50,066 nucleotides of DNA. Source: Escherichia phage EF3-1. This document shows, piece by piece, positions 22,533 through 23,494 of the stretch (position 1 is its first letter; each line of letters starts with the position of its first letter). Below the pieces are notes generated by a model, which made no database searches, had not been told where the DNA came from, and saw nothing but the letters and a program-made list of their open reading frames with translations. Location of the stretch: the sequence record PQ571291; one strand, written 5' to 3'. Both the position numbers and the translations under genes were made by a program.

Positions 22533-23246
22533 ATGAAAGACTTTAATGATATCGAAACTATCGACTTTGCAGAAACTGGGTGCTCATTCACTCGCGAAGC
22601 AATAGCATCAGGATGTTATTATCAAGCATTGAAAACGCCAACCTGCAAAGAGATTTCAGGACGTCGATACAAGGGAACCAATACACCTGACGCAGTTCGT
22701 GATTTATGGTCAACCCCACGCGAGGTTATCGCATACCTTGAGGGTCGCTACGGAAAATATGATCTCGACGCTGCGGCAAGCGAAGAAAATAAAGTTTGCG
22801 AGAAGTTTTATTCCCAGGAAACAAACTGCTTAAAACGTTGGTGGGGTAAAAATAAGCACGTATGGTTAAACCCGCCTTACAGTCGACCTGATATATTCGT
22901 CAAGAAGGCGATTGAGCAAATGGAGCACAACAACCAGATCGATATTCTTTTGCCTGCCGATAACTCGACGGCGTGGTTTACCGAGGCCCGACAGAACGCG
23001 GCTGAAATCATCTGGATTGAAGCCGATTTGACTGAGGATATTGACGGTAATGAATACGCACGATCCGGTCGTTTGGCTTTCATATCCGGTGAAACTGGAA
23101 AGGCGGTTGACGGCAATAACAAAGGTTCGGTAATTTTCATTCTGCGCGAACTTAAAGAGGGTGAGACACAGCAAACTCACTATATCCCAATCACAAGCAT
23201 TTGCCCTTCGGTGAAAAACAAGCGCGCAAAAGTGAGGAAAGTATGA
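22533..23246 (+). CDS. dam: DNA N6-adenine methyltransferase (phage Dam type)
   Basis: DLDAAAS and VWLNPPYS (NPPY) motifs; no adjacent endonuclease. Confidence 0.8.
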   Translation: MKDFNDIETIDFAETGCSFTREAIASGCYYQALKTPTCKEISGRRYKGTNTPDAVRDLWSTPREVIAYLEGRYGKYDLDAAASEENKVCEKFYSQETNCLKRWWGKNKHVWLNPPYSRPDIFVKKAIEQMEHNNQIDILLPADNSTAWFTEARQNAAEIIWIEADLTEDIDGNEYARSGRLAFISGETGKAVDGNNKGSVIFILRELKEGETQQTHYIPITSICPSVKNKRAKVRKV

Positions 23247-23494
23247 TGAACGATAAAATGATTCCGGTTAAGTTAACTGATCAAGGTTTATGGCTGCTTT
23301 ATCGAGCTACCTGCTGCGAAATTATGGAGCGAAACGGATTGACTCAGGATGTTATTGGTTGCGATCTGTGGGAGTTCACTAGTTCTCTTGATATGTCTTT
23401 CGACGAGATAAAAAATGAATACATAGAGAATTGGCCTTCAATCATACAGAAAGACGTGGAAGAACTTAAAGCTGATACAATCGTAAAGCACTAA
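23243..23494 (+). CDS. hypothetical protein (83 aa)
   Basis: ATGA overlap with dam stop; SD GTGAGGAAAG. Confidence 0.55.
   Translation: MMNDKMIPVKLTDQGLWLLYRATCCEIMERNGLTQDVIGCDLWEFTSSLDMSFDEIKNEYIENWPSIIQKDVEELKADTIVKH

Follow-up and report, generated by a model that had tools for sequence, protein, structure and literature searches.

A T1-like dam gene and an uncharacterised small gene downstream of it in Escherichia phage EF3-1

Escherichia phage EF3-1 (sequence record PQ571291) carries at positions 22,533 to 23,494 a gene for a DNA adenine methyltransferase (Dam), followed directly by a small open reading frame (ORF) that starts on the methylase stop codon. We analysed the whole stretch of 50,066 nucleotides, which we call the window, and all positions refer to it. 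The window is the genome of a T1-like coliphage (Drexlerviridae, Tunavirus), and over the 2.4 kb around the two genes it shares 92–97% identity with the genomes of about 60 T1-like coliphages and Shigella phages of the same genus. The explanation that we favour, and hold with good confidence, is that the region consists of the known T1-like dam gene and the known but uncharacterised gene orf19, arranged as a two-gene unit. Both genes are already annotated in T1 and dozens of relatives.

The methylase and its GATC sites

The 237-aa methyltransferase matches the Pfam family PF05869 (Dam) with 231.9 bits (cut-off 28.1, E = 4.4e-69, covering residues 49–236) and the NCBIfam equivalog TIGR01712 (phage N-6-adenine-methyltransferase) with 236.8 bits (cut-off 97.05, E = 8.8e-71). 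A first-pass annotation, made from the sequence, had pointed out DLDAAAS and NPPY motifs, and we find both, at residues 77–83 and 113–116. This is the arrangement of the T1 family, where an S-adenosylmethionine (AdoMet) motif D-x-D-A-A-A has (D/N)PPY close behind it. The label "Dam-type" in that annotation is right for function, since T1 Dam acts on GATC, but not for family. PF02086 (MethyltransfD12), the family of E. coli Dam and T4 Dam, was not matched, which is why we rejected membership in it, and PF05869 was the sole Pfam family found at E <= 0.01. No solved structure matched the methyltransferase by sequence. Phage records with a methylase of the PF05869 family number 1,517, and Vibrio, Stx and Klebsiella phages are among them. 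The ratio of nonsynonymous to synonymous substitution (dN/dS) of dam is 0.02–0.03 among 13 Tunavirus alleles.

Two loci have damaged methylase frames. The Dam of JMPW2 (locus L014, the IMG/VR copy; NC_041873.1) has an in-frame TGA at codon 99, where other alleles read TGC, and the Dam of locus L016 has an early stop at about codon 21 and an 8-aa insertion. The small ORF is intact in both. These are possibly natural pseudogenes or sequencing errors. JMPW2 was isolated on E. coli JM110, which is a dam/dcm-negative strain.

What the enzyme does can be read from phage T1, whose Dam is 98% identical. DpnI still cuts T1 DNA from JW3350, a dam-negative host, and the DNA of CC20, a dam deletion of T1 made with CRISPR, is unmethylated and MboI-sensitive (PMC10470545; 2023). 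CC20 is viable. Its burst is about 32, compared to 52 for the wild type (about 60%), and is also reduced in a dam-positive host, where host Dam does not rescue it (PMC10470545). By transfer from T1, we expect the EF3-1 protein to methylate the adenine of GATC on phage DNA, independently of host Dam. The first-pass proposal of an orphan GATC adenine methyltransferase is therefore borne out by a characterised enzyme. The test that came with it, in which DpnI and MboI are used on virion DNA grown without host Dam, has already been answered because it was published for T1 with an enzyme of this identity (PMC10470545).

The statement that there is no adjacent nuclease is wrong if taken literally. 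A VRR-NUC gene ends 68 nt upstream of the methylase start, and 1.1 kb downstream there is an SbcD-like exonuclease. Since neither of them is a restriction partner, the methylase is still an orphan in the restriction-modification sense. We looked for a Type II restriction-modification arrangement and found none among the neighbours, which are the helicase, VRR-NUC, small ORFs and the SbcD-like exonuclease, with both nucleases kept in relatives that lack Dam. A system with VRR-NUC as its nuclease was rejected because VRR-NUC is kept in Dam-less phages and is part of a conserved helicase/VRR-NUC pair.

We counted 248 GATC sites in the window, which is 4.95 per kb and 0.80 of the expected number. 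The Dam-positive loci (n = 56) have 4.0–7.3 sites per kb with a median observed/expected ratio of 1.03, whereas the Dam-less loci, from three phages, have 1.0–1.5 per kb with ratios of 0.26–0.39. The Dam-less set was L061 (MK373793.1, a whole genome), L056, L057 and L062, which represent the Rogunavirinae phage MM01 and two metagenomic relatives. The whole 43-kb genome of MM01 has 45 GATC sites. The ranges per kb do not overlap between Dam-positive and Dam-less loci, and the latter are 3- to 5-fold depleted. Keeping GATC with the enzyme and avoiding it without the enzyme is the pattern that protection from GATC-directed cleavage would predict. The contrast thus supports a protective role for the methylase, a question that phenotyping in the BASEL study did not resolve.

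Control of packaging or replication had been offered as another role, and this did not hold up. We found no GATC clusters of the kind that such control uses: 100 bp of the window contain four sites at most, which is within chance, and on this ground we rejected a role like that of the GATC clusters in P1 pac or oriC.

The small gene, the junction and the surroundings

The ATGA overlap described in the first-pass annotation is present. The TGA stop at 23244–23246 lies over an ATG at 23243–23245, which opens an 83-codon frame that runs to 23494. There is also a second in-frame ATG at 23246–23248, with a 1-nt overlap (TGATG), which gives a protein of 82 aa. The GAGGA in the last methylase codons is 7 nt from the second ATG and 4 nt from the first.

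We surveyed the junction at 54 loci carrying both genes, with some phages counted twice because two collections were used. Relative to the Dam stop, the next start is at -1 (TGATG or TAATG) in 25 loci, at 0 to +4 in 18, at +109 to +112 in nine and at +632 in one, and no start was found in one frame-shifted record. The gap between the two genes is therefore -1 to +4 nt in 43 of the 54 loci. The ATG at -4, and with it the ATGA overlap, is confined to Tunavirus. In relatives elsewhere the junction is either TAATG or a gap of 0 to +4 nt. This makes the second ATG (23246) the probable conserved start of the small ORF. It has the better Shine-Dalgarno spacing of the two, and the curated T1 record uses it. 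In most of the surveyed loci the methylase gene has a Shine-Dalgarno-like GAGGA, AAGGAG or GCGGAG within its last dozen nucleotides.

In nine Tempevirinae-like loci (L007, at 2376-2486; L033-L038, L042 and L043), Dam and the small ORF are separated by an additional ORF of about 36 codons. There it is this ORF that forms the TAATG junction with Dam, and it has a 1-nt overlap with the small ORF.

Tight spacing of stop and start, from -1 to +4, is the geometry where termination-reinitiation operates. In EF3-1 the stop and start overlap and a Shine-Dalgarno lies inside the upstream gene, so translational coupling of Dam and the small ORF is plausible from geometry. The overlap is not special within this genome. 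There are about 16 further -4 or -1 stop/start junctions on the plus strand of the window, including helicase/VRR-NUC at 22049–22052.

The first-pass annotation called the coupled ORF uncharacterised, and it remains so: the protein matches phrog_2676, a family with no known function (E = 1.1e-30, residues 6–81 of 83 against profile positions 1–75 of 78), and has no Pfam or NCBIfam match. A literature search found no described function for the gene. It is a real gene, as conservation and selection show. We found it in 273 phage records with tblastn, and its dN/dS is 0.16–0.18 among the same 13 Tunavirus alleles. A profile search of 5.8 billion proteins gave 195 relatives. An exhaustive hidden Markov model scan of 1.84 billion cluster representatives gave only 55 clusters, each a standalone protein of 60–110 aa, so there was no Rosetta-stone fusion to point to a partner. 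Every context of the small gene that we checked is a T1-like phage.

The protein is acidic, with 16 D/E against 8 K/R. AlphaFold2, with an alignment of 119 sequences, gave a confident five-helix bundle (mean predicted local distance difference test score, pLDDT, of 91.5; predicted template modelling score of 0.80). The residues L-D-M-S-F (nt 23387–23401) and one tryptophan (Trp63 in the 82-aa numbering) are invariant or nearly so among the aligned relatives. A Foldseek search of the model against the PDB had a best E of 1.1. A search of a viral structure library matched no annotated protein, and its eight matches at E <= 0.3 were all uncharacterized phage proteins, seven of them from named T1-like or enterobacterial phages. 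We saw no similarity to the DNA mimics Ocr and ArdA in sequence or fold. The idea that LDMSF is a linear peptide that binds the beta clamp was set aside, because the motif is inside a confident helix (block pLDDT of 96) and the leading Gln is absent.

Roth61 is a Klebsiella phage (locus L064, at 2733-2969) that we judged to be a Webervirus. The ORF directly after its Dam is only weakly related to the small protein (20.6 bits) and has TIDGTYMEF in place of the family-invariant SLDMSFEE.

The two genes also occur apart. MM01 keeps the small gene, sited after VRR-NUC and a 64-codon ORF, and we did not find Dam in its whole genome (best tblastn E of 2.5, and no methyltransferase annotated). L062, a metagenomic relative, and L056 likewise have the small gene without Dam in an arrangement like that of MM01. 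In the other direction, phage 933W has no homolog of the small protein near the Dam of its ninR region. Judging from these genomes, neither gene needs the other.

Two copies of an intergenic element that recurs in this genome, AGCAC-N3-TTGYTAAAA-N19-(T/C)AnnnT, bracket the unit. With <= 2 mismatches allowed, we counted 21 copies in the window, compared to 0.05 expected (Table 1). Around the pair, the copy at 19954 lies 5' of the helicase, the one at 22464 lies 5' of Dam, the one at 23487 is on the last codons of the small ORF, and the one at 25475 is past the exonuclease. The copies that we checked adjoin genes on the same strand. The spacer of the element frequently forms a GC-rich hairpin. 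In the downstream copy this is a strong hairpin at 23504–23525, with 9 bp, a GAAA loop and a z-score of -6.0. Such hairpins are called terminators in the annotations of T1 and MM01, and the SA12KD and SA30RD records have a terminator somewhere under the 2.4-kb match. The distance from TTGYTA to TAnnnT is 22 nt, which is too long for a standard sigma-70 promoter. Within the element, TAGCA-N5-TGCTA is an inverted repeat, and it is possibly the site of a regulator. We found no paper that describes the motif in a literature search. The element also flanks the Dam/small-ORF unit in Tunavirinae, in Tempevirinae and in a Klebsiella T1-like phage, so the two genes look like a conserved bicistronic unit. 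Such a unit explains co-expression and does not imply that the genes act together.

Table 1. Features of the dam locus and copies of the intergenic element in the window
Feature	Position	Strand	Remarks
VRR-NUC domain gene	22049..22465	+	nuclease fold, no restriction enzyme; start overlaps helicase stop by ATGA (22049-22052); also in Dam-less relatives
Upstream element copy	22464..22505	+	weak hairpin 22482-22501; 5' boundary of Dam/small-ORF unit
GAGAGGA, Shine-Dalgarno-like	22520..22526	+	6 nt 5' of Dam ATG; read from sequence
DNA N6-adenine methyltransferase, T1 Dam type, 237 aa	22533..23246	+	ortholog of T1 Orf20 / CPTT1_059
DLDAAAS, AdoMet-binding motif-I-like	22761..22781	+	aa 77-83
NPPY, catalytic motif IV	22869..22880	+	aa 113-116
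GAGGA, Shine-Dalgarno of small ORF	23234..23238	+	inside last Dam codons
Tandem ATGATG starts	23243..23248	+	overlap Dam TGA stop; first ATG = ATGA overlap, second = TGATG
Small acidic helical protein, 82 aa (83 aa from 23243)	23246..23494	+	pI 4.4; phrog_2676; ortholog of T1 Orf19 / CPTT1_060
Downstream element copy	23487..23528	+	AGCAC overlaps last small-ORF codons; 3' boundary of unit
SbcD-like exonuclease	24331-25482		1.1 kb downstream of methylase
Element copies (42-nt matches)	2954, 19460, 19954, 22464, 23487, 25475, 29078, 29578, 31209, 31626, 32090, 33268, 34247, 34984, 36042, 36603, 37329, 38711, 39231, 40604, 49114		whole window

The order of genes in this part of the window is helicase, VRR-NUC, methyltransferase, small ORF, two or three further small ORFs, SbcD-like exonuclease and holin. 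The same order is found in T1, ADB-2, IME347, haarsle, CS01, UTK0007 and others. The curated T1 record labels the counterpart of the VRR-NUC gene as a Holliday junction resolvase.

Several annotations in this region differ between records. The helicase is one 672-aa ORF in the window (20034–22052) and in T1, and in ADB-2 (locus L001) it is annotated as two coding sequences, 1034-1432 and 1489-3051. Downstream of the pair, the window has two small conserved ORFs that overlap in different frames, one at 23748–24020 (phrog_2817) and one at about 23965–24252 (phrog_4596/38834). With the downstream start placed where the T1 record has it (CPTT1_062/063), they share about 56 nt. The second of these ORFs would be 133 aa if read from its first ATG, but the phrog matches span residues 50–133 only. 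In the record of the Salmonella virus STSR3 (locus L008, MT500539.1) the product names appear to be shifted relative to the genes: "Helicase" is on a Dam-sized ORF, and "DNA adenine methyltransferase" is on a 372-aa ORF of the size of the exonuclease. Its homolog of the small ORF is fused into a 227-aa ORF, probably via a frameshift or a sequencing error. There are also 19 records named as Campylobacter jejuni phages (MG0656xx; A113, A136, A143, A15a etc.) with a T1-like Dam and small ORF at 43–66% identity to the window. These look like misattributed or contaminating enterobacterial T1-like phages.

Explanations for the two-gene unit

In the explanation that we favour, dam and the small gene would form a unit delimited by two copies of a repeated promoter/terminator-like intergenic element, with no restriction enzyme paired with the methylase. 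The main benefit of the methylase would be that the phage can retain its roughly 250 GATC sites and not be exposed to GATC-directed cleavage, and relatives without the dam gene would have purged GATC instead. The 82-aa gene, whose start lies on the stop codon of Dam, would make a protein of its own, one that is conserved in most of the family. Ribosomes finishing Dam could reinitiate at TGATG, and the GAGGA 7 nt upstream would also allow independent initiation. The overlap would then serve co-expression and compact packing, with no mechanistic tie between the two proteins.

Some results weigh against parts of this explanation. The GATC specificity of the EF3-1 enzyme is a transfer from T1. T1 Dam gave no protection against a Dnd system that recognises GATC (PMC10470545), and the BASEL study found no simple link between the methyltransferase genes of Drexlerviridae and resistance to restriction (PMC8594841). 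The case for an anti-restriction benefit therefore comes from the GATC statistics only. The smaller burst of the T1 dam deletion in a dam-positive host suggests either an additional role of Dam or a polar effect on the small ORF. Finally, the junction RNA (23170–23300) has a minimum free energy of -21.9 kcal/mol with a z-score of +0.70, and 151 of 200 shuffled sequences fold at least as well. We rejected coupling enforced by structure because the RNA is no more stable than shuffled sequence, and for the same reason the small ORF may initiate on its own.

This last point leads to the strongest alternative, which is that the overlap reflects genome compaction only and that ribosomes initiate on the small ORF independently, through its own Shine-Dalgarno. 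The GAGGA is strong and at optimal spacing, the junction has no significant sequestering structure, the start in 18 loci is 0–4 nt past the stop with no overlap at all, and overlaps are common genome-wide. However, the -1 to +4 spacing is conserved over deep divergence. We take compaction without coupling as a serious contender that falls a little short of an even chance. It and translational coupling are not mutually exclusive.

There is more doubt about what the small protein does. We propose, with low confidence, that it acts by binding a conserved protein of the phage or the host and is not a subunit of Dam. The partner might be a component of the replication-recombination module of helicase, VRR-NUC and SbcD-like exonuclease, or it might be a host protein. 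A more specific version, in which the protein binds a conserved partner via the LDMSF helix and Trp63 and part of the roughly 40% burst loss of the T1 dam deletion is a polar effect on it, would be a long shot. If it were true, the reduced burst would come at least partly from the lost translation of the coupled small gene and not from lost methylation. Published phenotypes of T1 dam deletions may in that sense be confounded by polarity on the overlapping gene.

Alternatively, the small acidic protein could act apart from phage DNA metabolism, as a host-takeover or anti-defence inhibitor of a conserved host protein such as a nuclease, a protease or a defence sensor. Small, acidic, helical, standalone proteins are the typical profile of phage-encoded protein inhibitors. 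This protein fits the profile, with its low pI, the excess of acidic residues and the compact helical bundle; it has no enzymatic motif, and its homologs are known only as the 55 standalone clusters, with T1-like phages as the context wherever we checked. We regard an inhibitor as possible but on the unlikely side.

The implied partnership between the two genes fared worst. A small protein that serves Dam specifically, whether as its regulator, its stabiliser or a specificity factor, with the overlap fixing stoichiometry, would fit the close spacing in 43 of 54 loci, the bracketing by the same element and a T1 burst defect that host Dam does not rescue, but we consider it very improbable, as the small gene is kept in Dam-less Rogunavirinae and L056, a separate ORF comes between the genes in nine loci, PF05869 methylases occur in many phage groups without the small gene, and no fusion protein is among the 55 clusters. 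The Dam-less relatives are a natural experiment, and they show that the downstream gene is no accessory of Dam. Since overlaps are common, the small gene survives the loss of Dam and the methylase is in 1,517 records compared to 273 for the small gene, we describe the two as a co-expressed pair and not as a functional partnership.

Comparison with known systems

The closest known system is phage T1 itself. T1 Dam (Orf20, AAP49979 / YP_003925) is identical at 233 of 237 residues and has the same neighbours, the same stop/start junction and the same family models. It differs by four substitutions (C28G, I138M, L204M and T212V, with the window residue first), which are expected to have no functional effect. 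The enzyme was reportedly purified in 1987 as active on its own, to judge from the title of that work, which speaks against a dedicated partner, and is said to have been sequenced in 1990. As this methylase is among the earliest characterised phage orphan methyltransferases, finding it in EF3-1 matters little in itself. T1 Orf19 (CPTT1_060) is 94% identical to the small protein, with the same position and overlap, and shows no difference of note from it.

E. coli Dam, T4 Dam and DpnM share the GATC target and the N6-methyladenine/AdoMet chemistry with these enzymes, for the T1 enzyme by experiment. They are of a different family, the alpha-class PF02086. In the window enzyme only 30 residues separate motif I from NPPY, and the variable region is C-terminal to both. 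The sequence similarity of T1 Dam to E. coli Dam has been reported as not significant (PMC10470545).

The methylases of lambdoid and Stx prophages (933W ST933Wp34) and of HP1 are closer, being of the same PF05869 family and likewise orphans without a restriction partner. However, they are shorter (175 aa) and lack the 48-aa N-terminal extension of the window protein, and those of the 933W type belong to the ninR region and are not accompanied by a homolog of the small ORF.
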